Positions 1,906 to 54,887 of a stretch of DNA of 64,000 nucleotides are shown piece after piece. Positions within the stretch are counted from its first letter, which is position 1. Every line of letters starts with the position of its first letter. The DNA is from Rhizophagus irregularis (lineage: Eukaryota): NCBI RefSeq assembly GCF_026210795.1, contig NC_089429.1:124001-188000 (forward strand), in the 5' to 3' direction. The notes beneath the pieces are model-generated. The model searched no databases, was not told the DNA's origin, and saw only the letters and a list, made by a program, of their open reading frames with translations. The position numbers and the translations under genes are program-made.

Positions 1906-2050
1906 ACACCAACTTAATTTGGGTGATTTACAGGGATTTTACCCTACTAATAGTGCGATACCTGATAATGCTAATCATAATAATTTTCCCCTTTCCTCTT
2001 CCCCTCTTATTAATTTTGGACAAATCAATGTTAATGGTTTATGTTCCCCT

Positions 2051-10569: not shown

Positions 10570-11150
10570 AAAGATGTATCATAGCTTGTTAGAATTGTCT
10601 CACTGAGACGAATCGAATGGTGGTAGTTTTATCCTTTTCCGATCACTGGCTGACGAGTTATTCAACAAAATGTTAAACATCAGCATTATAATATTTCTTG
10701 ATTTACGTTTACTGCGCCATTTAACATTTTGCTAGATTTCTCGGTACCTAGTGATTGTAAAAAGACGATTTATAGCTCGTTGGAATCGCCTCATCGAGAC
10801 GAATCGAATGGTGGTAAGCTCATCACTCTGTGATCAATATTGACGGAGTTATTACTTAAAAACAATTTAATATTTTTTAATTTCGGAAATTGATCTAGTG
10901 ATTGGATTTCGATGTATCATATACCATTAGATTCGTCTCATCAAGACGAATCGAATGGTAGTAAGATCGTCTTTCTAGGATCAATATTGACAGAGTTATT
11001 ACACAAAAACCATTAATATTTTTTAATTTCGGAAATTAATCTAGTGATTGGATTTCGACGTATTTTATACCATTAGAACCGTCTCATCAAGACGAATCGA
11101 ATGGCGGTAAGATCATCTCTCTGCGATTAATATTGGCGAAGTTACGATAC
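10570..11150 (+). repeat. Four ~145-190-bp internal units of the MITE, each centred on an imperfect palindrome (ttcgtct-catca-agacgaa)
   Basis: gacgaatcgaatgg occurs at 10607, 10798, 10945 and 11091. Confidence 0.9.
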
Positions 11151-11407
11151 AATAAAGTTTTAAGTATAATTCTGCTAAAATTATGTTAATTTATGGCCGG
11201 AATTATGATATACAAATATAAGAAATTTTTTATATAGTCACATCTCTTTATAATCACCAAATATGGAGGATCATCGCAACTCTTTCCTGAATTTTTGAAA
11301 ATACTAATAAAAATTTATTTTTGAAATTTTCGTTCGAAAATTTCTAAGTGCTCGTTTAAAATACTAATATTTCCACAGTTGCTTTCCTCTTTACTGAGCT
11401 CTAAACT

Positions 11408-14400
11408 ATGTCTACACCTCCAGCTCCTTCTGTTATTAACCCGGATATTCCGCCGCCACCACGTCCTGTTATTTCTACTCCCTCTGGAGACCGACCTTTA
11501 TCTCCCACTAGTACCGCCGGCGCGCCCAACAAACGTTCACGCGTTGTCTCTGATGACGCTATGAATGTTGATATAACTTCACCTTCTGCTTCAGCTCCCA
11601 TCCTTATTTCTACCGCTCCCTCAGGTCTTCCTGTCAACAAAGTCCAAGTGCTTACATCTCCTCAAAATACTACTACTCCTGTTGAAACTGTCGACGCTTC
11701 TATCCATACTCCCTCTAACACCAGTGGTAAAGGCAAAGCTGTCGCCTTTGATGTCCCTGAACGACGACCATCCCCCGATGGTAATGCTGCCGCTATTAAA
11801 TCCGCTCCTTCTCGTTATTATGCTGCGGCATATTTACGTGATGCGCCTGACGCGTTCAAAATTAAATTCACCACCAATCGCTCCATGTGTGACGAAGTGG
11901 ATTGCTCACTCTCCCGTTATTCCTCCTATGGCGCCCGTGCACGCTGCGATGGATCAGGCGATAACAAGAAAATCCTTGTCTTCTTCAATGATCAGCATGA
12001 TTTTACCGATTGTATCAGCTCCCCACGTGCCGATCTCCTCAATTTGGCCTTTAGTCACTACTCCCCTGCAGACGCCAAGCTCAGTGATGAGATGAAGTCT
12101 TTGTTCGTCACTGATATCCCGCTTTTCCTAACTGTGACTCAAGTCCGTCAAGCTTTCTCCAGATATGGCACTGTTATCAAGTGCAAACTTACCCCTAGAA
12201 AACATTACTATAATGGACATATCCAGTTTTCTTCCGCGGATGCAATTACCCAATTTAATGATATTTGGGCGATCATTTGCCTTGGTAATTCTTTACGTGT
12301 CTGCCCGGCATCTTTTTCGAAATCCCAACGCGATAGCCGCAGAGAACATGTTGCTATCCTTGCCGGCATCCCTAAGAATATTAAAGAAGCTGATCTGTTA
12401 GAAATCGCTACTCACGTCAACGCTAAGACCCTTAACGTCCCTTTGTCTATCAGTTCCTACAAACCTAAACCTTATGTATATTTGAATTTCTCCTTATTTG
12501 AATCCCTTGAAGCTGCCAAAGAAATGACCGTGGCTTTCCGCGGCAAAGGATTAACATGGCACCCTCCCAATGAAGCACAAACTTTATGCCATGTTTGTGG
12601 GTGTCCTGGTTGTTCTCCCTCTGTATGTAATCCACGTCCTACTCGGAAAGTGGACGATCGCCTTAACAAACTTTATTCTCGTTTTAATGCTGGACCTAGA
12701 CATGGTCGTCAGGATTCGCGCCAATCACGTGACAATTCCACTTCTCGTTCAAGATCGCGTTCCAACTCTAGATCCCGCAATAATAATTCCTCTTCATCCC
12801 GTTCCAACAACAACAATAATACTTCTAACACTTCTCGTCCCAATACTTCTCAAAATAACAACCGGAACAATACTAATACTAATAATCATAGGAACAATGA
12901 AAATTCTTCTGGTTCTACTCAACCTCCACACAAACCTCATTCTGTCAATTCTACATCACCTACACAGGTCGAAAGATGCCAAATCAGTCACCAACCAGGC
13001 ATTAATCGGGTATCCGATTGATGCCTGGTTGGTAACTGATTTTCTCAATTTGATACCAATCGGGCTGCCCGATTGATAGTTGATTTCCGCCAAAATCCGA
13101 CAACAACCGGCTATCATCCGGGCTGCCCGATTGGTGACAAATTGAGAGTCAATTGATGGCCGAACGATGGTCAATTAATGGTCAATTGATAACCGATTGA
13201 TGACTTATTGGATTTGCTTAATCCGACAGCAATCGGGCAGTATCTGATTAATGACCGATTGGTAGCGTATTAATGACCGATTGATAATGTATTGATGACT
13301 GATTAATAGCTGATTTGTAATAGCCGATTGGTAAAATTGGTTTTATAAAATGTTTATGATGCACCTATTTTATTTATTATATATTTATTTACGCATTATT
13401 AATTACAAATTATTAAAAACAATGGTTTTAATTCCAGCCTACATGCGCTTTATTAATTACAATTTACAATATATTCAAAAATTTGATTGTACAATCATAG
13501 TTGTAAATATAATTTATTTCAAATGGGAACTTATATCAATGTATACAATCATAATAAAAGTAATATGATTAAGCGAAAATCGGTACGTTTTTGTTTCTGA
13601 TTGTTCTGATTGCTAACAGGAACGAATTTAAAAATAAAGAATTAATAAATGTTATACATTAAACGAACAAACAAGTTATTAGAAATAAATGGTGATGAAA
13701 TCTTGCTTACCAAACTCCTAACGAATGTCCGTCAGAAATCGAGTTTTCCGATTACTGAAAGTAGGAACAGCTTAAAGACCATCATGTTAATCATCGAATG
13801 AATGAAATTCGTCAAAATCGATAGATATACAAATTCGTTTCTAAAAATGAAATAAAATACGGTTCATTTCTGATTTTTTGAGAAATCTTGCGAATTAGAA
13901 TATGAATAAGGGCGTACATTAATCGATCAATCAACATGAGCAACTATTTAATAAAGAACCGCTGACAAATGCAATAATTAATTTTCGCTCCTCGGCACAG
14001 TACTTCTACATTTCGTCAGAAATCGAGTTATCCAATTGCTGAAAGTAGGAGCAATTTAGATCTGACCGAAACGTTAATTATTGACACGTTAAATATCTCA
14101 AACGAATTGTGCTAAGAATGAACTCACCTTTAATAAAGTTCGTCAAAATCGGTAAATACACAATTCGCTATTGATCGCAGAAAATATGTCGGTAGGGTGA
14201 GAATCGGCAGTGTTTTTGATTTTTCAAGAAATCTCACGTATTAGCTAATCTTACAAAATATGAGTAGTAAGGTGTACGTTAATCAATCAATCAACGCAAC
14301 CATCAAATGGCACGACCACTACATCTTCACCGCTAACAAACTGTAGACTTTTCGCTCCCTTTGATATACATGAAAAAATACACATAACTATGTTATATAT

Positions 14401-17400
14401 CAAAAAAAAAGCATACCTATTTGTACCATTAGCCCACCATAAAACTGGTCATAGTTACTGATATCAGAAATCGAGTTTGCCGATTGCTGAAAGTAGGAGC
14501 AATTTAAAGATACCGTCACGTTAATTATCTAAACAAATTGTGCTAGGAATGAACTCACCTTTAAAGTTCGTCAAAACCGGTAGTTACACTTCGCTTCTGA
14601 TTGAAGAAAATGAATTTAAAAATATATGTCGGTATGGTGAAAATCGGCAGTGTTCATTTCCGATTTTCGAGAAATCTCATGTATTAGCTAATCCTACAAA
14701 ATATGAGTAAGGCATACGTTAATCAATCAATCAACGCAACCATTAAATGGCACGATCATTATTACATCTTCACCGCTAGCAAACTGAAGGCTTTTCGCTC
14801 CTTTTGATATACATGAAAAAATACACATAACTATGTTATATATCAAAAAAAAAGCATACCTATTTTACTCCATTAGCCCACCATAAAACTGGTCATAGTT
14901 ACTGATATCAGAGATGAGTTTGCCGATTGCTGAAAGTAGGAACAATTTAAAGATACCGTCACGTTAATTATCTAAACGAATTGTGCTAGGAATGAACTCA
15001 CCTTTAAAGTTTTTCAACACCGGTAGATACACTTCGTTTCTGATTGCAGAAAACGAATTTAAAAATATATGTCGGTAGGGTGAAAATCGGCAGTGTTCAT
15101 TTCCGATTTTCGAGAAATCTCATGTATTAGCTAATCCTACAAAATATGAGTATATCAATCAATCAACGCAACCATTAAATGGCACGACCACTACATCTTC
15201 ACCGCTAACAACAAACTGAAGGCTTTTCGCTCCTTTTGTCTTTGAAGTATCCGTTACGAGATAGTATTCCCAACGTGTGATTTTACAAAAAATGTCCGCC
15301 CTTGATGTGGAAGGTACTTAGGAACCACCTCGTCTCCCGATTAATGAGACCCTAGATCAGAGGAGGCTAGCCTATCAGGTACAAGCACCTTACAACTTCA
15401 TTCCTAGGTAGTCAAAAATCTCGGGTGGTTCCAGACCACAGCGTACTATATGTAAAAATATGCATGAAAAAAAATACATAACTAGAATGTTATATCAAAA
15501 AAAAGTATACCTATTATTACTTACCATAATACCATTAGACCCATCAGTTAGGCTTGCCTCTAAATGAAGTTTATCAAAATCGGTATATATACATTTCATT
15601 TCTGATCGCTGAAAACGAATAAAGTTTATTTCGTTAGAAGTGAAGATCAGTACAAATATTCGCTTACCATTTTTAAAGTTACACTCAGTAAAATGAAAAT
15701 CGAAAGAAATATGCATTGTCGTTCTATATTTCACTTCGATTGAGTGTGAGGAGCAAAGAAGTATTAAATTCATCAAAAAATCGGCATGTTCTCGCACCTA
15801 TAAAAACAGGAGGATATTTGAAACACAACTCAATGAAACCTGTTTTACAAAAAGGAAATAGTGAAGGTTAGCGATAAATAACAGTTTCCGTATCTGTCTC
15901 CAGAATAAAATTGGAATATTCCCGTTCACGATTGTTGAATGTGAAAGTGCTTATTATTATTAATTTGTTATAAACTCGTACAGCTGAGTAACTGACATAC
16001 CAGTATGTCAACCATTGTCAGTGAACGAGTCCAATAATTTCACACCATATATTATGGGCGTAGAAAGTAAACGGTGATATAATAAGCAAAAATAAACAAA
16101 AAATAGGCAACGCATTCGTAAGATGGTATAAGAAAAATTCGCAAATAGGCAAAACGGCAAAAGAAGAAAAATTCGCAAATAGGCAAACGGCAAAAAGAAG
16201 AAAAATTCGCAAATAGGTAAAAAGGTTGTTGTAAACAAAATGTGCTTATTTCCATATTTATTGTAATCAAACAGAGATCTGGCCAATCAGATTAAATTTC
16301 GATGATCCAGATCACTAATCAAATTGGACTATTTGCGTATTATAACAATCAGTATATTTGCAAATACGGATACCGATTTATTAGTTAGCCCGACTCGTGA
16401 AATTTACAAAATTTAGCAACTTTGCGTATATATGTCGATTTCTAAATTAATGTCAAAAATAATCTGGCTGGTAATCCGCAGCTAGATTAGCTGTATATCG
16501 GTATGATTGTCAGTTGATGAAATAAAATAAAAAAATTAGGTATTGTGAAAATTGAACCAAAAAGATTGTCAGTCTTTAATTTCTTTTCAATCTGTTTGAC
16601 TCAAGCATTATATTTACTGATATATTTATTAAATTTACTGATATTTATTAAATTTACTGATATATTTATTAAATTTACTGATATATTTATTTATATTTAT
16701 TAAATTTACTGACATATTTCATTTATTTTGTAATTTACTAATCGCCTTGGCAACTGGATTTTTTAATGGCCCATCGTAGCCTGATTTCGTCCAACTAGGC
16801 GCGCTATTCGGCGCCGTTTCTTCAACGTACTCACCAGGCTTGTACACCCGTTCACGCTTTTTATCGCCTTTTGTTGTATTACTGTCAACATAGTACAAAA
16901 ATCTGCGCAGCTTTGTTTTAAAATGAATTAGCATATGCCAGTTATATGTAACCCATTTCAATAAATTCACTTACAGTACTGGAGCGTCATCGCAGGTTAC
17001 GCACGACAATTATGTTTCGCTCGTCCTCGCTTTCTGAAATTTCCGGGCTATGATAGCCGTTTTCTGTGATTATTGGCCGCAATTCTTCGTTACTGAACTT
17101 TTCAATCAACGGATCATTAATTTTTTTTAAATTGTTGATCGTCTTTGATCTTTTTTTTCTTTTCTATTTTATAAAAAACTCGTAAATAAATAATGATGAT
17201 TAGGATGATTAGTAAAATATAACATTTATATTTACCTCCGATCATCGTGAATTTTGGTGTTTCCGTCCTGTTTCTTTCTTTATATCATTTTCTGATTTAT
17301 TTTTGACCCGAAGATTGTCCCTTTTGTGGCGGTGCCGCTGATGGATCATCTCGTATATGACACCTTCCCCTATGGTGTAGGTGTCAAGATCCAATGTTTT

Positions 17401-20400
17401 CATTAAATTTGGCACAATCGTTTTAACTACAAGATCCTTTTGAAGCTCGAACGTTTTTTCGATATCTAATTGAGTTTCCTGAGGCATTCTTGCCTGATTC
17501 CAGAATAGATCTCTCTAAAAATATATTATTATCAGTAAATTTATAAAAAATAAAAAATACAGCGAAAGTTTTGTTTACCCTTAATGCTTCTCTCAAATCT
17601 TTGGGCATTTCAGATACATGTTGGTATCGTCGTTCTTTTGACCTTTTTCTTTTCTTGTCATCTCTTGGCCTAGAATCAGAATCAAGAATTTGAGTGCCTT
17701 CCGGGTTTAATTCTATCAATTGTATATTGACCATTAAGCAGTGAATCAGAATGTTTAGAACACAATAAGCAGAATTATACGACATACTAAATGTACCTAG
17801 TTCTGATTCCGATTTTGATTCTGATTCCGAACTAGATTCGTATAAGATTTCTGATTCCGGGCTGCTTTTTGTATAAATTTATAAATATATCTCAATTTTT
17901 GATAAGTTAACTGACACGAAGGGTTACTTACTCTTCCTTACGAAGCTTTTTGTTTCCCATTTTGTAAACTCTATTGAAAGTTATGTTGAAAAAAAAAGAG
18001 AAAGTTATGTATCGGTTAGCCTCCGAGGTTCTCTGGGATAAAAAAGGTCCGGTTTTTTATCTATTAGGAAGCCTTGTTGGTAGAGGGCTTGGAAGCCTTC
18101 AGGCTTTTGACTTCGGTCGTTGCAGAAATCCAACGACAAGATTTTATAACTTTACTTACTATAAAGGACTGAAAGAACTGAAAATTTTAGACCAAAAAAA
18201 AAAAAGACTTATAATATGGTAAAAAAGAACAACGTTTCGCTCTGCAATATAATTAATTCGCGAATGTCGGTATCGTTCTTAACCCACCACGCGGTGCTGA
18301 CCCGCATAATATATTTTAATAAGGGTCAAGATGATGTCACCAGAAGGGTCAAGTCTGATATTTTTGCAACTAAATCATTTGAGCGAATTACCAAAACGGA
18401 CGGACCGCGTGATAATTTTCTGGTTTCGCTATAGTAAAACCCGATTAATATTAATTTTTCATTAATACCCCGTACAATTTCCTATCTTCACATGCCATTA
18501 AGCAATAATAGTCTATTCAGACCGGACTAATATATGAAATTGTACATATTAAAAGCTCTTTATTCGTCGATTTGACATTCATAAATAGGCTATAAGATAC
18601 ATACGTAGAAATTCTCAAATTTTTCATTGAACGCTTCGATCTTACTAAAACATAATCATGTCTACAAAACTTAGATATAAAGTATCATGTGATTGCAAGG
18701 AATGCAATGGCAAATATGTTGATGAAAGAACCAGAAAAAGACATCTAGATTTAGAGCGTCATTTAGCGTCTAGCGTTTCCGGATTTGTCCCTTTTTTACC
18801 CGGAAACAATCGGATTAAGCCAGCACATACCGTCTATCATAGTCCGATCGTAGAAGGATCATCAAGATCAAAAGAAATGACCGGACAAGAAGAGTCAACA
18901 TCATTTAATAATAATTATGAATCAGATTTTGCCGGTTTTGTCCCTCAAAAAAGGCGTAGACAAGACCAGTTTCGGGAACCAGAAACCAATAAGGAAAGCA
19001 ATGAACCGATTAATGAATATGAATATGAAGGTGACATTTCTCCAGAAGACAATATGGATTTGGACGACGATCCTGTTGAACAATTTGCTGCACCCGAAAA
19101 TGATTCAGAATTTGCATATCCCGACACAAATGTTAATATTGCGGATTCTTGGATATTAACATGGATATTCAAATATCAAGCAAGATTTTGCTTGCCGGAT
19201 GTTGCACTAGATTCTTTAATAAAGTTTTTTCATCAAGTATTAATGGATGCTAATCAGACGAGATTCAAAGATTTCCCGTCTTCTTTATACACTGCGACTA
19301 AGTTATTACGAATCGACAACCAATCTATGACTTACGCAGTATGTCCGAGCTGTAATACATTATATAATATAGCTGATGTTGTTGCGGATGAAGGATTTAA
19401 ATGTACGCATATAGAATTTCCAATGAAACCGAAGGAAAAATTTTGCGGAATGGAATTAACTGTGCAAGTACCGCATGGTAATGGAAATAAAAGACGCCCC
19501 AAATTGTTATTTCCATTGCCGAATTTGAAAATACAGATAAACAATTTGTACCAGAGACCAGAATTCAAGCAACAACTACGAAAATGGACCAATCGGGATG
19601 TAAATAATGGTATGTTAGCAGATATTTATGACGGTAAAATCTGGAAAACTTTTCCAGACACTTCAGACGTCCCATTTTTTACACCAGAGACCGCAGATTC
19701 CCACTTGGGAATTATGATTAATCTCGATTGGTTTCAGCCTTTCGAGTCATCTGTATACAGCTGTAGGGCTATTTATGGGGTTATTTGTAACCTACCGCGT
19801 GAAATTAGATTTAAAAAAGAAAATATGTTGACGCTTGGTCTACTACCAGGACCAAGCGAGGTTAAGTTACACAAAATTAACCATTATCTCACTCCGATTG
19901 TTGATGAGTTATTAGAGTTCTGGGATGGGATTGAGATTCCCGCCGCTGAAAAAAATATCCGATTGGCATTAATATGCTGTTCGAATGACATTCCTGCAGC
20001 GATAAGCTCTGCGGTCACATATCAGCATCAGTGAGCTGCCATAGGTGTTATAAAACTGCAAATTCAAATGGAAATGGAAATAAGTCAAATTTTGGCGGCT
20101 TTGATGATATGGTTGACTGGTTTGTAGAAAGAGATTTGGATGAACATCGACGGAATGCTGAGCTTTGGAGACTGTGTAAATCTGAGGAGGAAAGAAAACG
20201 TCATGTGAGTTCAACCCATGTTAGATGGTCCGAACTGCTTCGATTGCCGTATTTTAATCCGATAAGGTACCTTGTCGTAGATCCAATGCACTGTTTGTTC
20301 CTCAGAATAGCCCATTGGATAATTAAAAAATTATGGATCGATGGCAACAAGATCACGAAACAAGATCTAGAAAAAATGGAAAAGCGAGCAAAATACATAC

Positions 20401-23400
20401 AAATACCCGCGGATTTGGGGCGTATTCCAAATAAAATCGCAACTGGAGAAGGATTTTCCAGATTTACGGCCGACCAATGGAAAATGTTTGTTCTAATTTA
20501 TGCTATCCCGTTGATGTGGGATTTGCTCGCTGAACCAGATCGACAAATTTTGGGGAATTTCGTTAGAGCTTGTTCTCTGCTAGTTTATCGAATTATTGAC
20601 TGTGACATATTGAACGAAGCTCACGAACGTTTGCTCAAAGTTGCAACGTTAATTGAAGAAAATTATGGTCCGGAAAGAATAACCCCAAACCTCCATTTGT
20701 GTCTTCATATTGCCGATTGTTGCCGGGATTATGGTCCATTATATTCTTTCTGGTGTTTTTCCTTTGAAAGAATGAACGGTATCCTCGGTAGGTATTTTGT
20801 GAACTGTTTAATCATTTAAGCTTGCTAATAATTTATTAAATAATATATCAATAGGCTCTTTTCCCAATAGTAATCGTCAAATTGAACCCGAACTTTTACG
20901 AATTATAATGCGGAATTGGAGACTTGATAACCTTGTATCCGTTCAATCAAATAATGTTAAGCTTGTTGAAGCTTTAAAATTAATTCAACCACGATCAACT
21001 TCCGGAAGTTTGGCAGCTTACGATAATTTTAATTACACTGAGCTGTATCAATTTAGAAAGGTATTCTTCCAAGAAGTTGATGAAACGATTGTCGGTAGCG
21101 AACCATTTCCTGAAGAAATGCTTACGCCATGTAAAAATCGGGTTGCCTTGCCTGATGATATTTATCAAATCCTAACCGAATATTATAATATTGCTTACGA
21201 CTTGCAATTTGTAACAATTGCTGAGTCAACATCAACCAGTTCAAGAGATGCAATAGTTGTGCCAAATATGGTTGATCAATTTGGGCGGGTTAGGATCTCA
21301 GCAGAAGTGTTTGGATCGGCAATGGCGCCCCGATACCTGAAAAACGCGAATGTTTTGGCGAAATTTATCCAAAACAATGAAACGACCGACTTATTTCCAG
21401 GTCAGGTACAGTATTATTTTGAACATACTGTGAGAATTTCGGGTGAACTTAAAACACATCGATTAGTATTTGTTAAATGGTATAAACCGGCGCCAAACCA
21501 GAAAACCCGATTTTATACAAGTATTGATGGTGATGAAAAAAGCTCAAATATTGAACTTTGGCGAAATGAATTTTATGAGATAGAGCGAGATTGTTTAATT
21601 CCAATTCATTACCTATATAGTCGCTTTGTATCTGGTGAATTTGTAATTGGCAAAAAGAATCCTATCACATATAATGCTGTAATCCCAATAAATAGGCAGT
21701 TTCATTTGTGAGAATTTTTACTGGTATAATAGAATTCTATTGTTTGGTGAAAATATAAATTTTAAATATGCAGATTTACTTTAACATTTAATGGAAGTGT
21801 ACGATGTATTATATTTTTATTTTGAGTAATTAATTAGTTACACGACTATTTCAATTCAAGTAACTAAAATGATAGTTAAATAACCCTTCGACTGTTGTTA
21901 ATATACAAAAAAGATCAGAATATCAAGACTTGGGCCGGTCCAAAGGACTCACGGCATCCAAGCCAACCGGTCCAGAGAACTCACGGTCATGGTCAAATAT
22001 TCTGGAAAGTAATGCATACAGCAGGTACTGAACTCAGAAATATAATCCAGGTATTACATTCCCTAACCAATACGCCACTGCAGCATTAAAGTTACAATAA
22101 AAAAGTTCCAATATAATTTATTTGATTGATTTTCTTATAAGGTAATCATGCATGAGTAATTAGTCTGTAAGCAGCAATAAAAATCGTGCCGATTATAAAA
22201 AACTCATGATAAATAAGTTCATCAGCTTTCTGCCGGTCATCTCTTACGTTTGAAAGTTTTTTTGAAAGTGGATTGTAATTTCAAAATTTTATTACAGGTA
22301 TACCGATAATGATCAAATGGAACAAATTTACTTGAAAATTTAATGCATATCCTTCAATTTTAATAGGTCAGTGAAAACAAAGATTACATTCAAGTCAGTT
22401 TCTTTTTTACGGTTATCGATTTTCTTTTATATAAACCGATTCCGCTTTAATATAATAATAAACATTCTTAACAATTATCTTATACTGTATATTCATACCA
22501 GTTTTTTCTTATAGTTATTGGTCTTTCGTACGAATATCACAATATTCGGTTTTTATATCTGCATTTTTTTTTTTATCTCATTTTTTTGTAAATAGTCAAA
22601 GGTTATAAATTGATTTTTATTTTAATCCTAGGGGTTATAATGGGCCGAAAGCATAAACATAGTAGCCTTAAATACATTAGGCAAAACCTGATACGAAAGA
22701 ATGAGAATTTAACGCGAGTAAATGACTCTTTACAAATAATGTCGAATCACGCAACGATCAGGGATATAGAATCTTGGAAAAAGGTTGTAGAATTAGAAAA
22801 CTGTAATCGTGCGTTAACGGAAATCATGAGTATGCAGAAAGAAGCAAATGATTTTCTACAACAAAAGATCGATATATTAGAAACTCAACTATCCCTACTT
22901 AATAATTCAGAAATGGGAACTTTATTAAATAATCAAGAAGTGAATTCGTTTAGCAGTGCTCTGATGTTAGCATCCTCTGTCAAAATAAATAATATCAGAA
23001 GTGAGGAGGGTGAGGAGGATGAAGACGGTAAAATTAAAATACGTGAAATATGCGAGTAAGTCTTATTTCGATATAATATTTGTCAAATAATAAAGTCAAA
23101 TAATAAATAATAGAAAAGTTTGTAAGTCAATGATATATCTTATTAAATAACATATAACATATACCGGTGTTGCTTAATTTCTGCAAATTTCGCGTATCAT
23201 ATTACATCATTACATCGTTACAGTCAAATAATAAATTATAGAAAAGTTGTAAGTCAATGATATATCTTATTAAATAACATATGACATATACCGGTGTTGC
23301 TTAATTTCTGCAAATTTCGCGTATAATATTACATCATTACATCATTAGTCTAATGATTAATTGTCAAGATTTTAATTTATTAAATTTATTAATCATTTAA

Positions 23401-26400
23401 TTGTTAATTGTTAGAACAATTGAAAATTGTTAAAATTGTTAAAAATAATGAAAATAATCGATCTGAAAAAAAAATACTGATTTCTTTCTATACTGTGGAT
23501 ATTTTTATGTTTTTTAAAAAAATTTAAAAAATTTGAATTAAATATGTCCAATAAGAAAGATTTAGAGAAAGTAGACGAGCTATTGGGTAAGTTGATCGGC
23601 GGACAGCAGATATTAGGATATTACTAAAAACTAATGATTATCTAAATTAATAGCTTTTACCCAACAAGCCAAATATTTTTTTGAAAAAATTGCGAATATT
23701 ATACAAGGACAACAAGAACAGCAAAATAATGAACCCTACGGGGTGCCAGGTTCTTCACGGGCTGTTTCTTCACGGGCTGTTTCTTCACGGGCTGTTTCTT
23801 CACGGGGTTCTTCACAGGCTGGTTCTCAAGCAAGAACCAATTCTTATATCGTCAGATGAGGATATAACAATTAAAATGGAAAAAAGCGACACCGCTGTAA
23901 CTAGCGGTATTAGTGAAAAAGGTGAAGAAAGCGCTGTAACCAGCGCCACTAATGAAAAAGAAGATGTAAGCGCTGTAACCAGCGCTACTAATGAAAAATA
24001 CAGGGGTACTAAAAAGGCCGTCAAAAAAAAAAATACTAACGATGGCGACAAAAATTCCAGAAAAAGCCATCAGCGATAAAGCAAAGGGAAAAGCCCCAGT
24101 CCAATCAAGTTCAGACGATTCAAGTGATTCGGACAGCTCCTATAGTTCAAATAGTTCAAATACTCCCTTCTATTTGACGAAGAGTGATATGCCAAAAGAT
24201 CTAAAAGAAGCCTTAAGGGTAAATAAGGATATCTCAAATTAATTTTATATATATTTATTAACTGATATTGTTGATTTTATATAGAAGGAAGTTATTTGGA
24301 AGTATGATGCGTTACCAGAAGGGAGAAGGATTGATTTGGGTCAAACATTCACTAATCAGCGAAATCGCGTTATTAACGATATTATACCTAGTATAATGGA
24401 AAATATTAATAATAATATATTTCCTATTTCTAACGAAATTTTATATGATATAATTCACTCCCCTTCATCGTCATCGACGTGAAGAGCACCTTAAAAAGAA
24501 TCGGTCATCGTCAAGAAAAAAACTGCAAGAAAAAAGAAAACATTCCAATTCCAGACGCCACGACGTGAGTAAATAAAGTTTTGTACAGTGTATATATTTG
24601 CTTAATACTAACTTCTTATCTAATACAGAAAAGATTAAAAAGGGGAAGACTAATAAAACATTTACAGATGGTGAAAAATTCATTAGTCAAGAAATTTAAG
24701 GACGAAGACTTACAATTAATAATTGACAATAACGCTTACCATTCACCCGAGGAATCCGAGACTGATTGCGAAAACGGGAGAAGCAATATTATTGTCAAAG
24801 ATCTTAAGTGGAGATCTGACACAGTGAGTATTTCTTCCTGCTTTTATTATTTTTAATTTTACCATTTCTGACTATTTTTAATTTTACTAACTATTTCTAC
24901 CTATTTTTAATTTATTTACTAACTATTTCTAACTATTTCTAACTATTTCTAACTATTTTTAATTTTACCAACTATTTTAATTTTTTTAAGTTACGATTAT
25001 TTTTGCGTGAATATATTGACCGATTAAGAACTGAACAACCAAATAATAGAAAATTACGTGAGCGAGTTATGGGCAATTGTTTTTGTAATAATGAACCGGC
25101 GGCGCCTTTGTTGGCGCCACATTGGACTCGTTCTGGATATAAAGGAAAGTTAAAGATCGCAGTCACCCAGCAGCTGGACCAGCGTCAAGACCAGCAGTAT
25201 GACTTGATGAAATTTGCGGAAAGTGAAAAGTCCTTTAATGATGGATATGATGCTGGACGTTGGAGAAGGAGGAAGAAATGAAGAGACTGTTTTATTAACA
25301 AGTACTGACCAACCTTCCAACCAATCTTCCAACCAACCTTCTAACCAATCTTCCGACCAATCCTCTAACCAACAACCTTCCGATCAATTCTCCAACCAAC
25401 AACCTTCCGATCAATCCTCCAACCAACAACCTTCTGGCCAATCTTCCAACCAACCTTCTGGCCAACCTTCTGACCAACTTTCTGACGATGATTATCTTGA
25501 AATGGACGATTGATGGTAGTGATTGTGGTGGTGTTGTGATGGTGGTGATTTCCTATATTTTGTATTCTATTTACCTATTTTTCACTAATAACCGATCCCC
25601 CCTCCCCTGCTTTTGCGAATTTTATGTATATTAATTAGTACATACAGTTAATTTTTTTTTTTTCTAAAAATACTTCCTTCAAATAATATTATTGTAATAT
25701 TTCTTTTTTCAATTATTTCTTTAATCATCCAACGATATTCTTTTTTATAAAAATCTTCGACTTTCTGCCTATTTTTTCTTTATTAAATATCATTCCTTGT
25801 ATATTCCCTTGTTTATTTTGTACACATTATTTCATCATGTATAGTCAAATGATAAATTTTCAGTGGTAATTAGAAGAATTATTAAATCTTTTAATACAAT
25901 TGGTGACAAAATTGTTTATTATTTAGAATAAATCATTTACTAGCTTATGCAATATAAAAGAATGTGGGTACATACATTTTTATTATGATTTCCATCATTG
26001 TTCAGTTTACTAGTAACAGTTAAAATAAGTCGGCCAGTAGTATCGAATTTTTATTCTTCGATAAGTCTTAGATCAGATAAAATCATAAAGCACATTTATT
26101 GAATGAGCATCAATCGGCTACATACAAATCATCTATTACAACTATTTGCAAAATAACGGACCAGCTAATTCGATTTTCGATTGCGTATGAATATTTCATA
26201 CGCAGTCATATACGCATAGTTAACTGCTAGAATTATTGTGATATAACTGCAGATGATTACATATGAAAAACTCAAAAAATGAGTTTGACGGTCTGGGCAG
26301 ATATTACCATGCGTATAACTGCGTATGAAAATTTCATACGCAGTCGAAAATGAATTAGGTGGTCCATTATTTTCGCAAATAGCTGTAAGTGGTCCGTTAT

Positions 26401-27333
26401 TTCGCAAATAGCTGTAATCTGTATCAATCGGACATATGCCTGATTGGTACCCGATTGACAATAATTCGACCTGCTGATAGCCGATTGATGACTGATGGTC
26501 AACAATATCCAATCGGCAACCAATCGGTCAACTTCCAATATAGATGACAGATGGCTGATTGTTTACCGATTGTTAAACTGGCACCAATCAGTCACCAATC
26601 GGCACCAATCGGTCATACAACTGATGTGTAGCCGATTGAAATAAATGCCTGATTGATGACCGGTTGGTATCTGAATGAATGAATCAGTAACAGATCAGCT
26701 ACCAATCAGGTACCAATCAGTTATATGACCGATTGATGATCGGTATATTATATTTCGACCTGTGCTACTTCTCCATCGGATAATCCTGCCCCTATGCTTC
26801 CTCAACATATTATTGATGAATTAAAGGCGCAGATTAAAGAGATCGCTACTACCCTTAAATCTCTTGACGAAACTGTTTCCTGGATGCAGGATACCATCAC
26901 GAATCATGATTATAGAATTTCTGAGCTTGAATCAATGATGAATTATGATTGCGGTAATCCCAGTGACTCAGATTTGTACCCACCTCATGACGATCAAGAA
27001 ACTCATTCCTATAATCATGGATGGGATGATACTCCAACCCAAGACACGAATTCTGGATTCAATCTTCCTCCCAATACCTCTTCTTCTCTTATGGACGTCT
27101 CTCCTAATGCTTCCTTCTCAGCCCTGGATCCTAGCTCCATCCTATCAAGACGACATGTCCCCTTACCTGTCTTCCGACCTACTAATACCACCCCTGATGC
27201 TAACGCTTCTCGTTTGCAATCAGAAATTTTTAATGTTACTACTACACAAAAGAATCTTTCTGCCCAACTTGGTTCGATTATGGAAAAGTTGGACTCCTTC
27301 TCTCCTTCAAAACCTTCCCCTTCCAATGATTGA
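11408..27333 (+). CDS. LINE B ORF1 (~706 aa after joining 11408-12962 and 26768-27333): RRM-like domains, Cys knuckle, S/R/N-rich region, coiled coil; split by a CACTA insertion
   Basis: Removing 12963-26767 rejoins the frame (…NSTSPTSPSDNPAPMLPQH…). RRM-like LFVTDIP…VRQAFSRYGTV and CHVCGCPGCSPSVC are present. Confidence 0.9.
13700..15240 (-). repeat. Degenerate tandem array of 3-4 units (~300-450 bp) inside the CACTA element
   Basis: Recurrent cagaaatcgagtt…gattgctgaaagtagga, gaactcacctttaa and aatcaatcaatcaacgcaacc. The segments ~14365-14805 and ~14805-15235 are near-identical. Confidence 0.85.
16719..17960 (-). CDS. CACTA accessory gene 1 (about 6 exons, unknown function)
   Basis: ATG at 17960. 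GT-AG introns link ORF pieces 17423-17785, 17242-17487 and 16719-16970. Homologous to the gene at 23544-25513. Confidence 0.7.
18658..21711 (+). CDS. CACTA/EnSpm Tnp2-family (Transposase_21-like) transposase; one frameshift near 19996, intron 20788-20854
   Basis: Motifs DIYDG, NLDWFQPF, LLPGPSE, NDIPA, RWSELLRLPYF, VDPMH, PNLHLCLH, YGPLYSFWCFSFERMNG and FPGQVQYYFEH. Confidence 0.9.
22640..23059 (+). CDS. Small coiled-coil protein inside the CACTA element (hypothetical)
   Basis: Open frame MGRKHKH… of ~139 aa, with a heptad-like L/I/E/Q/N pattern and an acidic tail. Confidence 0.5.
   Translation: MGRKHKHSSLKYIRQNLIRKNENLTRVNDSLQIMSNHATIRDIESWKKVVELENCNRALTEIMSMQKEANDFLQQKIDILETQLSLLNNSEMGTLLNNQEVNSFSSALMLASSVKINNIRSEEGEEDEDGKIKIREICE
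23095..23343 (+). repeat. Direct tandem duplication of ~125 bp
   Basis: gtcaaataataa…ccggtgttgcttaatttctgcaaatttcgcgtat…acatcattacatc occurs twice. Confidence 0.9.
23544..25513 (+). CDS. CACTA accessory gene 2 (multi-exon, low-complexity repeats, apparent frameshifts), paralogue of gene 1
   Basis: ATG at 23544 and GT-AG introns. Motifs MPKDLKEALR, YHSPEESE, LKWRS and APHWTRSGYKG. Coding minisatellites of 15, 39 and 12/15 bp. Confidence 0.7.
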
Positions 27334-30300
27334 ACACCGATTTATATCGGGTGCATCACAGGGATTTCACCCCCCTAATAGTGCGATACCTAATAATAAT
27401 AGTCCTAATACTCCCTCTTTTCCTTCTTTTTCTTCCCCTCTTATTAACTTTGGACAAATCAATGTTAATGGATTATGTTCCCCTGTTCGACAATTGCATT
27501 TGTTAAATTATTTTCTCCATTCTTCTTTTGGCGTTTTATCTTTAAATGATACTCGTCTTACTTCTTCTGGTGCTAGATTTATTTATCAAAATGAACATTC
27601 ACAACATAATTTTAAGTCCTATTGGGCTCCTTCCCCTTCTAATTCCCGACCTCATGATGGTGTAGGTCTTTTACTTCGCCACCCTTTACATAAACATGTT
27701 CAGAAGATTGATCCTTGGAAAGGTCGTTTATTAAAACTAGATCTTTTTTTTCATCAAACAAAAATTTCTATTATTTCTGTTTATATTCCTCCTTATCATT
27801 CTATTCATTATAAAGAACGTGATGCTATTTTTGCTCAACTTAATTTATGGCTTGATAAAGCCCGCTCCAATAACTATCACGTAGTCATCCTTGGCGATTT
27901 TAATGCAGATGAAATTTCACATTCACATCTTTCTCAACATCATTTAAAAATTTTACGATCACTTTCTTCTCGATATTTTACAGATCATCAATCCCATATC
28001 TCTTCAATTTCAGGTCCTAGTCCTACCTTTTATCATCAGAATGGTTCTTCAAGACTTGATTATATTTGGTCATCCCCTGGATTTCCTGCTCCTGGTCTTT
28101 TCTCTCAAGTTGAAACTTGTCCTAAGCTGAATGATAATCAATTTACTGATCATTGTGTACTTATAACGGCCTTTGACTTTAGCTCATGTTTCGCAATTTT
28201 ATCCAAAGCTCGATTAAAGCAGAAGAGCGAACAACGCACCATCTTTCTTTACAAAAACTTGAAAAATGACACTTGGAATAAATTTTCCAATGAAGTAAAC
28301 TCGCGTCTTGAGTTATACTTGACCACGCATCATCCTTCAATATCTTCAATTTCAGCTCTTTCATTGGACAAACTTTGGCACGCTCTTAAACGTTCTATTC
28401 TTGGTGGTGCCATTGATTCTCTACCATTCCAACACGTATCCAACACTCATCACCATAAATATTCTCCGGAACTTACTATGCTTATTGCTATCAACAAATT
28501 TTTGGATAGATTATTATTCAAATTGACCACTTCTAGGCCTAGTCGTCCTGCTCAAATTTCACAAATGATTAATTCTTTATCTACTCAATTAATCCTTCTT
28601 AAGTCTCTTTTGACAGATTATACTATACCTTCCTATAGTATAACACCGCTTCACACTTTTGTCAAATTTTTACGTTCACATAAAGCTCTGGTCTCAGCTT
28701 ATCTCTCCACGCAATTTCATCAACATCGTGTAGATTCTATTGAATATTTTACTGCTCTTCGAGATGAACATTTCTCTACATCTCCAAGCTCTTTTATTTC
28801 TTCAGCCCTATCAGTGGAACATCGCTCTATCATTCTTGATCGAGTCTTAGTTGTTATTGACTCCAAGCCTACATTACTTACTGATCCTTCCGACATCAAA
28901 CAAGCTGCTATTAAACACTTCCAATCGGTCGTTACTCCTCCTTTGGTCCAGTATTCTTCTACTGAATCATTTCCTCCGCGTTGGCAAAGAGCATATACTC
29001 CTCTTTCTGACTTTGATTCGTCCTTATATACTTCGGTTATGTCTCCTATTCTGACCGATGAATGGAAAAATACTATTAACTCTATGCCTAACAATAAAGC
29101 CTCTGGTCCTTCCAAGATCTCTTATGAGATGCTCAAACATTTAACTGGAGAAGCTTTTAATTTGTCCCTTGTACTAGCCAACGCTTGTCTCACTCATGGA
29201 GATATTCCTGCTGATTGGCGTGAAGCGCTTGTTTATCCCATACCAAAGCCTACTGAATTTGACGCCCAATTGAAGAATACGCGACCTATCACTTTATTGG
29301 AAACAGTACGTAAATGTGTGGTTAAGGTCGTTACTACTCGACTTTCAAAAATCCTAGCTGACAATCAAGTGCTTCAAGGTGGTAACTTTGCTGGATTGCC
29401 AGGCGGTTCTACTGACATTCCTATTAAGATGCTGGATGCCATTATTCATCAACGCCGTTTTGACAAATCTGATGACCAAGAATTATGGATTGTTTCTCAG
29501 GACATTTCTAAGGCCTTTGACTCAATTGATTTGAATATGCTTAGATTGGCTCTAATCCGTCTACATATACCTTCTTTGTTGATTAAATTTATCATTAATC
29601 TTTTTACTAGACGTAATAATAAAATTATTACCCATCATGGTGATACTTCTGGATACAGAGTTAGAATTGGTATTGACCAGGGTGAAATCATTTCTCCATT
29701 ATTATGGGTTATTTACTTGGATCCTTTGCTTACTACACTTAATCGAGAAACTCGTGATCCCTTTATCTTGAAATCTTCTGCATTATTGGATTATTCTCCA
29801 ATTGAATATGAACAACACAATCTTCCTGTTTCACATATTACATTTATGGATGATTCTACTTTAATTGCTTCATCCAAACGAGGAATTGAAGATCGCCTTT
29901 CCATTACTGCTGAATTTTATACTTTAAATAATACTCAAGCAAATTTAGCAAAATATATCCTTCTTTCTTCTGAACAATTTTCACAAACTATAGAGTTTGA
30001 TCTTTCTTTTTCTCCTTTAATTTTAAATCCTACCCTTACTTTAAAGGCGTTAGCCTTATCTACATCTTTTCGGTTTTTAGGTGTTTGGTTTAACCTTTCA
30101 GCTTCTTCTCGTTTCGTTCATAACCAAACTGTCTCCATGATCAAAGACATGGCCGCTCTACTCAGTTCTAAAAAACTTTTAGCACAACATGTAGCTTACC
30201 TTTATAACGTTGTCCTACTTCCGAGGCTAGAATTTCGCCTACAATCCACATTATTTGCTGAATCCACCATTAATCGCATGGTTTCTCCAATGCTTTCTCT

Positions 30301-33111
30301 TATTCGTCAGAAGGCTGGTTTGGCCTCAGTCACTCCTCTGTCTGCGCTTTTCACACTGTTGTCGTTCTCTATCCAACAAGCGTTCGGTCGATTTCTATCA
30401 TCTCATGTGGCTTCATGGCAAAGAATTTTTTCTCACCCTTCATATAAGCTTTTTGCTAATTATATGATTACATATCTCCAAGGATTTTTGGATTGTGATG
30501 CTTGTCCCTCTACTATTGATTTGGAACCATGGTCTCATACTTTTTCTTTACGAACACATTCTTTGTTCAATTCTTTATTGTTCTCTTCTCGATTGAATAT
30601 CACGTGGTCTTTATTGTTCCGACCTCTGAGGAAAGATTTACGTCCGGCGATTCCACTCCGGTCTATTTTACCAAAAGATTTATTTACTTCCATGAAAAAT
30701 GTTCGAAACAATTTTGGTACTCGTTTTCTTGCCCAACTGGTTTCTCCGTGTGGCTCTCGACTTCTCTCATGGAAAGATTTACGCTTTCTTAAACGAGTCT
30801 CGAACAAAGGATCTGTGCCTGCTTGGTTTACTTTTTTATTTAATCTTATTGTTATTTCTAATTCTTCTTCTTTTTTTGTTTTACCACAATTTAAGATTCC
30901 TATTTCTCATACAGTAGCTTCCATTTCTTTTATCGACGTTAGTCGAAATTATTGGTTTAACCCTCAATGGGCTATTTCTTTTAATCGTAATACTAACTCT
31001 TTTCTGGTTGGCCGTGTGATCACTACCTATCCTACTCCACGTAATGAAGCTCTTATTTCACATTGGATCGCGTCATCGGTTGATGACTTGCTTTCTGAAT
31101 TTACTGCATGCCAAGGTTGTGCCTCTGCTATTCCGCGATCCTCTACTTCTAAGACTTTGATTAAACGATGTCCCTTCGAAGGATGTTTTTCTTACGTTCC
31201 GTTATCAAGTTTGATCCGTTATCCTACGAAACCTCGTACTTATATACATGCGGATACTCGCTCAGTTTCACTTTCTGCCTCGTTAGGCTATGCCAAATCT
31301 CTTTTATTATTCCAGCTTTTTGCTCCGGTTCAACTACCTCCTATGACTGATCAAGTGTCTAGGACTTCCGATATCCAACTTCCTTCTTCGGTGTCTACAC
31401 TTTATATTGATGGTTCCTTCCTTTCTCCTCCTAGTCATCCGACATCCTCGATGGCCTACGCATGGACTGCTATAGATCCTGATAGATTTGTTTTGGAATC
31501 TCACTATAATATTATTTCTTCCATTTTTCCTTCTGCTTTACGTTCAGAAGTTTTTGCTTTATTACATGGATTAGGCTCCCTCCCTCGGAATTCTAAGATA
31601 ACTGTCGCCACTGATTGTGCTCAATTACTTTCTTTATGGTCTTTATATGTGGATGCTCCTTTTATTCCCAGAATGCTTAAAGAATCCAACCACCTTTTGT
31701 GGTTCTCCATACGCACTATTATGTTGCAAAAGAATCTGGATGTTACCTTGATCAAGGTCCCTGCTCATGCTGACGATCCTTTGAATAATCATGTGGATGC
31801 ATTAGCCAAAGCCGCTCATACTGACTCACAGCTTTCTTCTTGTCCACTATTGGATTCGATGGCTCCTTGCATTTTACAATTTAATTCCTTACCTGTGGAT
31901 AGAGCTTGGACTCGCACTCATGTAACTCGAGTTGACTCGAGTTGAACTCGCACTCGAGTCAGAAATTTCTTGACTCGAGTCAACCGAGATCACGTGGTTT
32001 ATAGTGCCGGCTGAACCTATTTGTAATTCCTGCCGGCACTATGACCATAACGGTCTAGGTAAAATTATGGATAAGTTTTTTAGCCCGCACTTTGACTCAA
32101 ATTAAGCTCGAGTCCTGGACTCCCGAGTACTCTTCAGTCAAAAAAATTCTTGATTCATTTTATCGAGGTTATTTCATCCATTCAGTCCAAAGCTCACCTG
32201 TGGATATGAATATCCGGAAATTTATTAGAGATATTTTTGACGCCAAAAGTCTTTTAACTCTTGCTGTATTACCAAGATTTAATTCCTATTCTTCAACTTC
32301 TGATATTGATTGGGCTTGTACCAAATTTTGTCTCAATAACAATAAGCAGTTTGCCTCTCATCGGAATGGCCGTTCTGAGTTTTGCGGTTTCCGTATCAAA
32401 TTACTTTTAGATATGCTTCCAACACTTACAACTCTTCAGCGACGAAAGCCTCATCTTTATGATCCAAGTTGGCTTTGTCCTCAATGTAACTCCTTTCCTG
32501 AGACCTTAGACCACTTGTGGACTTGTCCTTATATTTTACCAGAATTTAGCCCTTTAAATACTTTTAAAACACTTTTATTGGCTCTTCGGACTAATTATCT
32601 TGACAAGTTCTTTTCCGCGTCATCTTTAATACCTTTACCGGACTAATTCGCTGCTGAATTTATGTCTCTTGATTGTTGGAATTGTGACCCTCCTTCAATC
32701 TCTTGCCTAAGACTCGTACGAGGACTTATACCGACATCCCTTACAGAATTTCTTGGAACCTATTTTTCTCCACTTACCTTATGGTCTATCTTAGATACAC
32801 TGTTGCACAACTTTCATTTTGACCTTTATGTCCAAATCTGGTTGTGCCGTTCCATTTTCTTTCATCATTGGGAACTAGCCCAAGGCATTACAAAAAAAAT
32901 GAAATCATCAGCTCTTGGGCCTTCTTCTATTCTTTACCCTTCCTCTAACATTCCTCTTGACTCTTCGACACCTTCCCTGGCGACAGCTTCCTTGGATTCC
33001 TGGGTTTCTTGGGTTTCCTCTTCTATAATCCGTGGGGGATCTTGGATTTCACATTTGGATTTTTGGCGCCGCTTAACAGTTCAGCCTCTACTTAGGATTT
33101 CTTTTTGGTAA
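27326..33111 (+). CDS. LINE B ORF2 (~1826 codons after removing the MITE): APE endonuclease, reverse transcriptase, RNase H, C-terminal CCHC knuckle; one internal stop at 32644-32646
   Basis: GQINVNG, GDFNA, SRLDYIW and FTDH (EN); DISKAFD, QGEIISP and FMDD (RT); YIDGS, RSE, ATDC and AHADDPLNNHVD (RNase H); CPQC…HLWTC. The ATG at 27326 overlaps the end of ORF1. Confidence 0.95.
31902..32195. mobile_element. 294-bp MITE (hAT- or Mutator-type) in LINE B ORF2
   Basis: TIRs GAGCTTGGACT and AGTCCAAAGCTC, with flanking duplication acctgtggata. It contains ctcgag-rich subterminal repeats and is absent from LINE A. Confidence 0.9.
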
Positions 33112-35561
33112 CGGATTGGATCTTAGGACATGCTGGATAGTTGACTCACACTGGCCTTCGGGTAAAGTTGGGGTATGCGTATTCTGTAATAGTTTAGTTT
33201 TTCTTTACTTAATTTTATTTTGTTTAGATTTCTTTACTTGTATGAATCGTGAAGCTAGTTCTTTTTATTTTTTATGTTATTTTCTATATTTGATATTTGT
33301 AATATTGTTCGATTTGTTTGTTGTACTTTTCGTTTAAAATTAATAATAAAAGATAAAGTCATAAGACTGTTTGCTCATAATCACCAAATATGGACTGTCC
33401 CAAATGTGTGACTATAAAGAGAGTTGACTGTATTTCTTTTATAGATATTAGTCAAAATTATTTGTTTAACCCTTAATGGGCTATTTCTTTTAATCGCAAT
33501 ACTAACTCTTTCCTCGTTGGCTGTGTGATTATTACTTATCCTGCTTCGCGAAATGAAGCTCTTATTTCACATTGGATAGCGTCATCTGTTGATGACTTAC
33601 TTTCTGAATTTACTGCATGCCAAGGTTATGCCTCTGTTATCCCGCAATCCTCTACTTCTAAGACACTAATTAAACAATATCCTTCTGAAGAATGTTTTTC
33701 TTATGTTCATTTATCAAGTTTAATCTGTTACCTCACGAAACCTTGTACTTATATACACGCGGACACTCGTTCGGTTTCACTTTTTGCCTCGTTAGATATT
33801 GCCAAATTTCTTTTATTATTTCATCTCTTTGCTCCGGTTCGATTAGCTCCCGCGTTTAATCAAGTGCCTAGGATTTCTGGTATCCAACTTCCTTCTTCAG
33901 TGTCTACACTTTATATTGATGGTTCTTTCCTTCCTCCTTCTGGTCATCCGATATTTTCAATGGTTTATGCATGGACAGCTATAGATTCTGATGGATTTAT
34001 TCTTGAATCTTCTTATAATATAATTCCTTCTATTTTTCCTTCTACTTTACGTTCAGAAGTTTTTGCTTTATTGCATGGACTGGACTCCCTTCCTCGGAAT
34101 TCCAAGATTACTGTCGCTACTGATTGTGCCCAATTACTTTCCTTATGGACTTCGTATGTGAATACTCCCTTTCTTCCTAGAATGCTCAAAGAATCTAACC
34201 ACTTGTTGTGATCTTTCATACGAACTATTATGTCACAAAAGAATCTGGATGTTACCTTGATCAAGGTTCTTGCTTACGCTGACAACCTTTTGAATAATTA
34301 TGTGGATGCATTAGCTAAAGCTGCTCATACAGACTCGCATCTTTTTTCTCGATCGTTGTCCAAATTGCTAGCTCCTTGTGACTTACAATTTAATTTTTTA
34401 TCTGTAGATATGAATATCCAGAAGTTTATTAGAGATATTTTTGACGCTAAGAGTCTCTTAACTCTTGCTGTATTGCCAAGATTTAATTCTAATTCCTCTA
34501 TTTTTGATATTGACTGGGCTTGCACCAAATTTTGTCTTAACAACAAAACACAATTTTTCTCCCGTCAGAATGGTCATTCTGAATTTTGTGCTTTCCGTAT
34601 TAGATATGCTTCTGACGCTTACAACTCTTCAGAGACGAAAATCTCATCTCTATGACCTGAGCTGGCTTTGTCCTCAATGCAACTCGTCTCCTGAGACTTT
34701 AGACCACTTGTGGACATGCCCTTATATTTTACCTGAATTTAGCCTTTTCACTACTTTCAAAACACTCTTATTGGCTCTTCAATCCAATTATCTTGATAAA
34801 TTCATTTCTGCAACATCTTTAAAACCTTTGCCAGATTCTTTTACTGCTGAATTTACGGCTATTGATTGTTGGGTTTGTGACCCACCTTCGTCCTCCTGCC
34901 TGAGACTTGCACGTAGACTTATACTGATGTCCCTTACAGGATTTCTTGGAAATTATTTCTCATCATCCACTATATGATCTATTTTAGATACACCTTTACA
35001 TGACTTTCATTTTGACCTTTATGTTCAAATCTGGTTGTGCCATTCCATTTTCTTTCATCATTGGGAATCGAGTTTCAGCATCGCTAAAAAGATGAAATTG
35101 TCAGCTCTTAGGCCTTCTTCTATTTTTCGTTTTTCCTTCAATATTCCTCTTGATTCTTCGACACTTTCCTTGGCGACAGTTTCTTTGGATTCCTGAGTTT
35201 CTTGGGTTTCCTCTTCTATAATTCGTGGTGGATCTTGGATCTCGCATTTGGATTTTTGGCGCCGCTTAACAGTTCAGCCTCTACTTAGGACTTCTTTTTG
35301 GTAACGGATTAGATCTTAGGGTATGCTGGATAGTTGACTCATACTGGCCTTCGGTAAAGTTAGGGTATGCATATTCTATAATAGTTTAGTTTTTCTTTAC
35401 TTAATTTATTTTGTTTTGATTTCTTTACTTGTATGAATCGTGAAGCTAATTCTTTTTATTTTTTATGTTTATTTTTATATATTTTGTAATATTGTTCGAT
35501 TTGATTATTGTACTTTTCATTTAAAATTAAATAAAAGATAATGTCATAAGACTGTTTGCTC

Positions 35562-35615
35562 ATAATCACCAAATATGGACTGTTCCAAATGTGTGACTAT
35601 AAAGAGAGTTAACTG
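35562..35615 (+). mobile_element. Right terminus of Tc1/mariner MITE copy A (host of LINE A)
   Basis: 52/54 identical to 33377-33430 and followed by TA. Confidence 0.9.
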
Positions 35616-54885: not shown

Positions 54886-54887
54886 TA

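Follow-up and report, generated by a model that had tools for sequence, protein, structure and literature searches.

The analysed stretch of DNA (hereafter the window) comprises 64,000 nucleotides of contig NC_089429.1 of Rhizophagus irregularis (assembly GCF_026210795.1), and all coordinates given are window positions on the forward strand unless stated otherwise. It contains two copies, A and B, of a long interspersed nuclear element (LINE) together with copies of a miniature inverted-repeat transposable element (MITE). Self-comparison of the window revealed a nested order, in which a MITE holding LINE B is inserted at a duplicated TA within LINE A. LINE A is represented by a 5' part with open reading frame 1 (ORF1) and the start of the endonuclease-reverse transcriptase (RT) region of ORF2 (1 to 4618; 79-87% identity to LINE B by self-BLAST, and tblastn), a middle part with the C-terminal half of the RT (9440 to 10344; self-BLAST) that terminates in the TA that was duplicated upon insertion of the inner MITE, and a 3' part with the RNase H domain, the C-terminus and the 3' untranslated region (UTR) (33433 to 35561; 84-86% identity to LINE B). 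Its true 5' end and 5' junction are located upstream of the window, beyond the sequence examined. LINE B (11268 to 33376; about 8.0 kb minus two inserts) separates the left part of the inner MITE (10345 to 11267), which includes a 23-bp terminal inverted repeat (TIR), TATAGTCAC repeats and 147-bp tandem repeats, from a segment consisting of the 3' copy of the target site and the MITE right end with its TIR, followed by TA (33377 to 33430; sequence and alignment). The target and the right end of the outer MITE holding LINE A occupy positions 35562 to 35615, are likewise followed by TA and share 52 of 54 bases with the right arm of LINE B.

The empty MITE has a length of 959 bp and is characterized by 23-bp TIRs that begin with CAGTCAACTC and match at 21 of 23 positions as well as by seven TATAGTCAC repeats; no ORF of at least 150 amino acids was detected inside it. 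Tc1/mariner transposons typically have TA flanks and CAGT ends. Judged by the TA duplication, which is evident for the inner MITE relative to the uninterrupted sequence of LINE B, the short CAGT TIRs and the absence of coding capacity, the host element is a non-autonomous Tc1/mariner-type element. A third copy, C, is located on the reverse strand (52933 to 54885) with TA on both sides. It spans 1953 bp because it carries a 973-bp insert (53618 to 54590) with a 20-bp duplication, which resembles a short interspersed nuclear element (SINE) with a tRNA-like head and lies antisense near MITE position 280. At a TA, copy C adjoins an older MITE left-end fragment with 82% identity (54886 to 55082). 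A weak match of protein P0136 to the opposite strand of the MITE (E 0.002) was set aside.

The sequence that connects the LINEs with the MITE is the 18-mer ATAATCACCAAATATGGA, which was found at 11250, 33377 and 35562 on the forward strand and at 52969-52986 on the reverse strand. With up to two mismatches allowed, these are four matches, compared with 0.03 expected by chance. LINE B is flanked by the 18-mer on both sides, the 5' copy covering positions 11250 to 11267 (exact-site search, variant junction), and its 3' junction, which is free of a poly(A) tail (33376/33377), is the same as that of LINE A (35561/35562). Both LINEs terminate at the identical base, 54 bp from the MITE right end, and their common junction reads ...GTCATAAGACTGTTTGCTC / 18-mer / MITE right end. 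Copy C contains the 18-mer once and represents the empty site. Accordingly, two claims of a preliminary description of this DNA, an identical 3' junction in LINEs A and B and an unoccupied site in copy C, were borne out. The same description had assigned a perfect 18-bp target site duplication to LINE B; the 18-mer is indeed present on both sides, but the true duplication probably measures 15-16 bp, as suggested by a one-G-shorter junction variant and by the junction of gene model P0002 (both described below), and the apparent 18 bp would include a GA microhomology with the LINE 5' end. The target starts within TATAATCAC, a variant of the MITE repeat TATAGTCAC.

LINEs A and B share 81-88% identity in all six segments compared. 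The divergence that had been noted in places such as the C-terminal region of ORF1 is spread over the whole element. Over 2141 codons, the synonymous divergence (dS) is 0.46 and the nonsynonymous divergence (dN) 0.085, resulting in a dN/dS ratio of 0.18, whereas a neutral simulation, in which LINE B was mutated at random with the observed spectrum including the CpG context, yielded a ratio of 0.69 (minimum 0.57 of 200). The 14 stops present in LINE A correspond to about 5.5% decay after insertion. LINEs A and B therefore diverged as active lineages under purifying selection. The left arm of the inner MITE that holds LINE B, in contrast, is 98.3% identical to the empty copy C over 922 columns, and two of 54 bases are different between the right MITE arms of the two LINEs, a difference with P = 3.5e-8 at the synonymous rate and P = 0.014 at a rate of 14%. 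Since a dN/dS of 0.18 and a dS of 0.46 stand against MITE arms that are 96-98% alike, the two LINEs were likely inserted independently, as the preliminary description had assumed, and their lineages appear to have been separated by successive retrotransposition long before the insertion of either copy into its young MITE. An RT tree of 123 rows, calculated with a quick method, grouped A and B together in a supported clade comprising 50 rows; the subfamilies were weakly resolved, and the tree was therefore dropped as evidence of independent insertion.

These values also bear on the competing explanation that a single ancestral LINE insertion was spread as a DNA transposon, with A and B as its copies. 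Both filled elements have kept their TIRs and TA flanks, and transposition of the inner element together with the LINE B that it contains is conceivable. A single ancestral insertion nevertheless fits poorly with the dN/dS ratio and with the contrast between dS and MITE-arm identity, and the sequencing data described below add two 5' junction types, an on-site copy with another 5' UTR and tandem junctions, so that we regard this scenario as very improbable. As the sole cause it is largely refuted; composite jumps may still add copies.

Further copies were accessible through four of 24 listed sequencing runs, comprising DNA contigs from three studies (X2, X4 and X5) and raw poly(A) RNA (X24). 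The region 33000-33460 yielded 2288 (X2), 1574 (X4), 574 (X5) and 3640 (X24) records, with 24 of 242 loose-end rows listed, and the region 11195-11345 yielded 702, 1177, 117 and 21 records, respectively, with 19 of 55 loose-end rows listed; the following observations at both ends refer to the rows listed. At the 3' end, empty MITE sequence precedes position 33377 in 25, 28 and 8 contigs of X2, X4 and X5, diverse flanks begin right past the TIR in 7 and 9 contigs, and no loose end was present behind 33376 in the three DNA runs. At the 5' end, the empty site was found in 19, 4 and 6 contigs, along with an older empty variant, and the one-G-shorter junction in 9, 5 and 5 contigs and in 6 of 12 RNA reads; no unrelated flank before 11268 was observed in X2, X4 or X5. 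Additionally, record 22 of X5 represents a copy with the MITE-left junction that continues with a different 5' UTR after 11301, and in three RNA reads the 3' end of an A-type LINE is followed by the target and then, in tandem, by the 5' end of a LINE. Two contigs that begin precisely at 11250 were not accepted as tandem junctions, since a length of 60-61 bases is also expected of ordinary variant bubbles. The summed depth of the MITE ends exceeds that of the LINE ends about 3-16-fold, a rough measure and not a copy number, which indicates that targets are not limiting.

Gene models outside the window provided additional junctions. Among 336 stored proteins, three, which originate from two loci on different contigs, read past the last bases of the LINE, and both loci enter the target. 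The protein P0260 (GET52153.1), the sole match of a search aimed at LINE-end read-through, continues with HNHQIWTVPN, corresponding to the target and the MITE right end. P0002 and its isoform P0236 (GET59005.1) contain the five target codons HNHQI, followed by Y, GWSPYLSG and a stop. The latter eight residues plus stop exactly match the head of the SINE-like insert at 53620 and are unique in the six frames of the window; the P0002 junction is composed of LINE, about 15 bp of target and SINE in the same orientation. Accordingly, all four LINE 3' ends with a readable flank (A, B, P0002/P0236 and P0260) are on target.

RNA depth extends beyond the LINE into the MITE right end, with a value of about 45 at 33384-33399 compared with about 4 in the MITE left part, pointing to read-through transcripts that include the target. 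Such transcripts are the basis of a further alternative, 3' transduction, in which the 54-bp MITE right end is part of the LINE transcript and the shared 3' junction was inherited rather than targeted. Besides the RNA reads that extend past the LINE into the MITE, the position of the left side of LINE A outside the window leaves room for it. On the other hand, LINE B is preceded by a MITE left arm and flanked by the duplication, full-length 5' ends are without unrelated flanks among the rows listed, the right arm of LINE A ends with TIR and TA and lacks poly(A), and in P0002 a SINE head, rather than the MITE end, comes after the target; 3' transduction is accordingly considered highly unlikely. 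Independently of these junctions, run X24 contains an abundant transcript class that shares the 3' UTR segment 33181-33314, differs from the LINE upstream of this segment and, from about 33314 onwards, passes into short A-rich ends. It probably derives from sister LINEs or non-autonomous partners.

The SINE-like element was likewise encountered at the target. Its head displays box-like motifs, read by eye, and a cloverleaf-like fold with a z value of -2.4; ARAGORN made no tRNA call in this head and no Rfam match was obtained for it. The insert is long for a SINE and contains a second B-box-like stretch near 54080. In the DNA runs, a tail precedes position 11250 in 5, 7 and 3 contigs (X2, X4 and X5), and 12 of 13 bases of its X2 consensus, AAACACTTGTAAA, agree with the 3' terminus of the SINE-like insert of copy C. 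Both head and tail of the SINE were thus found abutting the LINE target outside the window, the former in the P0002 junction and the latter in the DNA runs. The SINE probably uses the LINE target site, though not exclusively. No significant RNA structure was detected at the 3' ends of the LINE or the SINE.

Taken together, the shared junction, the empty site and the on-target loci outside the window support the claim of the preliminary description that a LINE family inserts at one exact site inside a Tc1/mariner-type MITE. The site preference is well supported, with independent insertions and a SINE at the site, and we consider it likely that the LINE copies recur at one base of the MITE by way of independent target-primed insertion with a strong site preference. 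As to the flanks, none among the rows listed is unrelated, and two of two outside loci are on target. An unlikely, though not negligible, alternative is a hot spot only: the LINE would cut TTAT/AA steps in AT-rich DNA at large, the majority of its copies would reside elsewhere, and the abundant MITE would have caught several. The predicted nick is similar to 5'-TTTT/AA-3', the short consensus of L1 given in the available text of PMC1950540, and a hot spot would also accommodate the window SINE at another site and one unmatched 5' piece, given that 24 of 242 and 19 of 55 rows were listed. It is less compatible with four of four readable LINE 3' flanks on target, with the lack of unrelated flanks among the rows listed at both ends in three runs and with a depth at the MITE ends that, by rough measure, exceeds that of the LINE ends about 3-16-fold, so that targets are not limiting.

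Several observations weigh against a strong preference for a single site reached by independent insertions. Single-copy flanks scattered over several positions could be missed by the 24 of 242 and 19 of 55 rows, and contig depth is no measure of copy number. In record 23 of X5, the 41 bases ahead of 11262 are without a match, and this piece may represent an off-target or a diverged copy. The 5' flanks covered are those of full-length copies, and the left side of LINE A lies upstream of the window. The difference of two in 54 bases between the right MITE arms does not reach significance when the 3' UTR rate is applied (P = 0.12). Moreover, the SINE copy of the window occupies another site in MITE C, and a 3' tail shared between the SINE and LINEs A or B was not found by BLAST (word size 7, E <= 0.05). 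Since the RNA library reads both strands equally, read-through is not strand-proven.

The deduced proteins assign the family to the non-LTR retrotransposons. ORF1 of LINE B (11405 to 27333, split by a CACTA-like insert) encodes an RNA recognition motif (PF00076, E 7e-5), and its stop overlaps the ATG of ORF2 at 27326. ORF2 (27326 to 33111) specifies an apurinic endonuclease (APE) domain (PF03372), RT (PF00078) and RNase H (PF00075), according to Pfam, and a CCHC knuckle recognized in the translation. No long terminal repeats (LTRs) were found by self-BLAST of the window. With an N-terminal APE and an RT in ORF2 and a nucleic-acid-binding ORF1, the family belongs to the APE-type non-LTR retrotransposons. 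A structural model of the endonuclease (pLDDT 88.6) matches the L1 endonuclease (L1-EN) with Z 25.9 and a root-mean-square deviation of 2.6 over 223 residues, tied with exonuclease III homologues. The catalytic positions are conserved, and the metal-binding glutamate E43 of L1 is replaced by D across the close family, including relatives of 60-85% identity (27440-28180). A search of representative proteins returned 276 proteins at E <= 1e-30, and among ten of these that were looked up, one is assigned to a species, R. clarus. The nearest named relatives are R. irregularis gene models with at most 96% identity, followed by R. clarus with about 50% in the RT. RNase H was present in nine of ten distant relatives checked. 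In a profile search, L1 ORF2p scored above R2, a result that does not place the clade. To our knowledge, ORF2 of the Tx1 clade is without RNase H; as the LINE described here contains this domain, it was not assigned to Tx1. Viral and prokaryotic collections gave no matches, and a metagenome scan with the LINE 3'-end pattern yielded three loci, all of which were chance matches without similarity to the window.

With respect to the mechanism, APE-type LINEs are known to employ target-primed reverse transcription after a bottom-strand nick. In the present case, the endonuclease would nick the bottom strand at 5'-GGTGATTAT/AAAGAG-3', a TTAT/AA step similar to that of L1, and would cut the top strand 15-16 bp away. 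Steps of this kind are frequent in AT-rich DNA. The 11-mer TTTATAATCAC also occurs at 10512 and 54709, both in the left part of the MITE, and at 43131, in all cases unoccupied. Because the sites in the MITE left part are unused in both checkable copies, recognition must reach beyond the TTAT/AA step, and it probably extends further downstream of it. Read-through transcripts with target sequence would probably help priming. The duplication would restore the target site and thereby permit tandem insertions, and the tRNA-headed SINE probably borrows the machinery of this LINE or of a sister LINE. The data do not discriminate between recognition by the protein, RNA-DNA homology and tethering to a bound transposase. 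The MITE may serve the LINE as a self-renewing safe harbour. A more far-reaching scenario, which we advance with reserve and hold to be possible rather than probable, is that strict specificity for a 15-20-bp site arose independently in a fungal LINE lineage that bears RNase H and lies outside Tx1. The site would belong to a subterminal repeat to which the transposase of a still active mariner-type MITE binds; transposition of this MITE would renew targets and carry filled composites, while the tRNA-headed SINE rides along. If true, this would represent a three-tier parasite chain convergent with that of crocodilians, and the system would be a candidate tool for site-specific insertion in an arbuscular mycorrhizal fungus.

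Both LINEs of the window are interrupted by other elements. LINE B is broken by a 13.8-kb CACTA-like insert, by a 294-bp TIR element and by one in-frame stop in ORF2 (32644-32646). The former, a CACTA/Plavaka-like element located inside ORF1 (12963-26764), has 12-bp inverted ends starting with CACAG, CTA on both sides, a Transposase_21 domain at 18649-21711 and internal repeats at 13732-15521 and 25286-25498. The 294-bp element interrupts ORF2 between RNase H and the zinc knuckle (31902-32195) and is flanked by an 11-bp duplication, by the length of which it is presumably Mutator-like. LINE A is split at 4619 by a 4.8-kb insert (4619-9439) that starts with CACTAG, and contains tandem repeats of about 100 bp and decayed ORFs with a C2H2 finger; at its right junction, about 166 bp of the LINE are missing. 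The first 253 bp of this insert are 89% like the segment 49631-49883, which abuts a third LINE, a decayed reverse-strand fragment (48359-49629) with 40-52% protein identity and lost ends that groups with a sister clade. Nested arrays of this kind affect the repeat annotation of R. irregularis, as they yield chimeric gene models such as P0002.

The principle of LINEs residing at fixed sites in non-autonomous DNA transposons is already known from crocodilians and Xenopus, and the fungal instance appears to be undescribed. The preliminary description knew of no published fungal, RNase H-bearing equivalent, and none was found in the sources covered, with Repbase, subscription journals and the transposable element library and Supplementary Fig. 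1 of PMC11075540 outside coverage; LINE and SINE targeting of a non-autonomous Mariner, however, is known in crocodilians (PMC4494074). PMC11075540 labels LINE families of R. irregularis as L1-Tx1, L1-R1, I and others, its available text gives no target sites for them, and its main text has no whole-word hit for 'nested', 'MITE' or 'target'; the family described here may already be part of that library. The available text of PMC8869645 and PMC3956500 holds nothing further bearing on the fungal case.

Among sequence-specific APE-type LINEs, R1Bm contains RNase H. Its target is the 28S rDNA, whereas the target described here is a transposon. The endonuclease hairpin loop aligns without gaps to that of R1Bm and is thus of equal length, two residues shorter than in L1-EN; this weak alignment (E 0.12) is a lead only. 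Like the present LINE, Tx1L of Xenopus is an APE-type LINE at one site within a non-autonomous DNA transposon, but the respective host, Tx1D, is of the piggyBac type and not of the Tc1/mariner type (available text of PMC4494074 and PMC1950540). According to the latter source, as far as available, the hairpin loop of Tx1L comprises eleven residues and the specificity of Tx1L-EN has been assayed, whereas the loop described here aligns to the shorter one of R1Bm and the endonuclease is known from sequence and model.

The closest parallel is provided by the crocodilian Tx1-Mar LINEs and SINEU elements, which prefer Mariner-N4_AMi (Kojima 2015, PMC4494074, available text). In both systems, a LINE and a SINE share a non-autonomous Mariner target, and tandem copies sandwich a duplication, for which 16 bp are quoted in the case of SINEU-3. 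Both systems also have two used regions, antisense near 240 and sense near 830 in Mariner-N4_AMi compared with an antisense SINE near 280 and a sense LINE near 905 in the MITE. They differ in the fungal host, in the RNase H of ORF2 and in the tRNA-like head of the SINE, which is U1/U2-like in crocodilians. Moreover, the MITE copies described here are young and 98% alike, whereas the crocodilian copies are 86-89% identical to their consensus (PMC4494074). The short, exact, multicopy target and the coexistence of specific and sister families (about 60-78% identical) in the same species make the source of specificity, i.e. protein loop, RNA-DNA homology or tethering, testable by comparison. If the present interpretation is true, the strategy of LINEs living inside non-autonomous DNA transposons extends beyond animals to a fungus, and also to a lineage with RNase H, which would point to repeated convergence.

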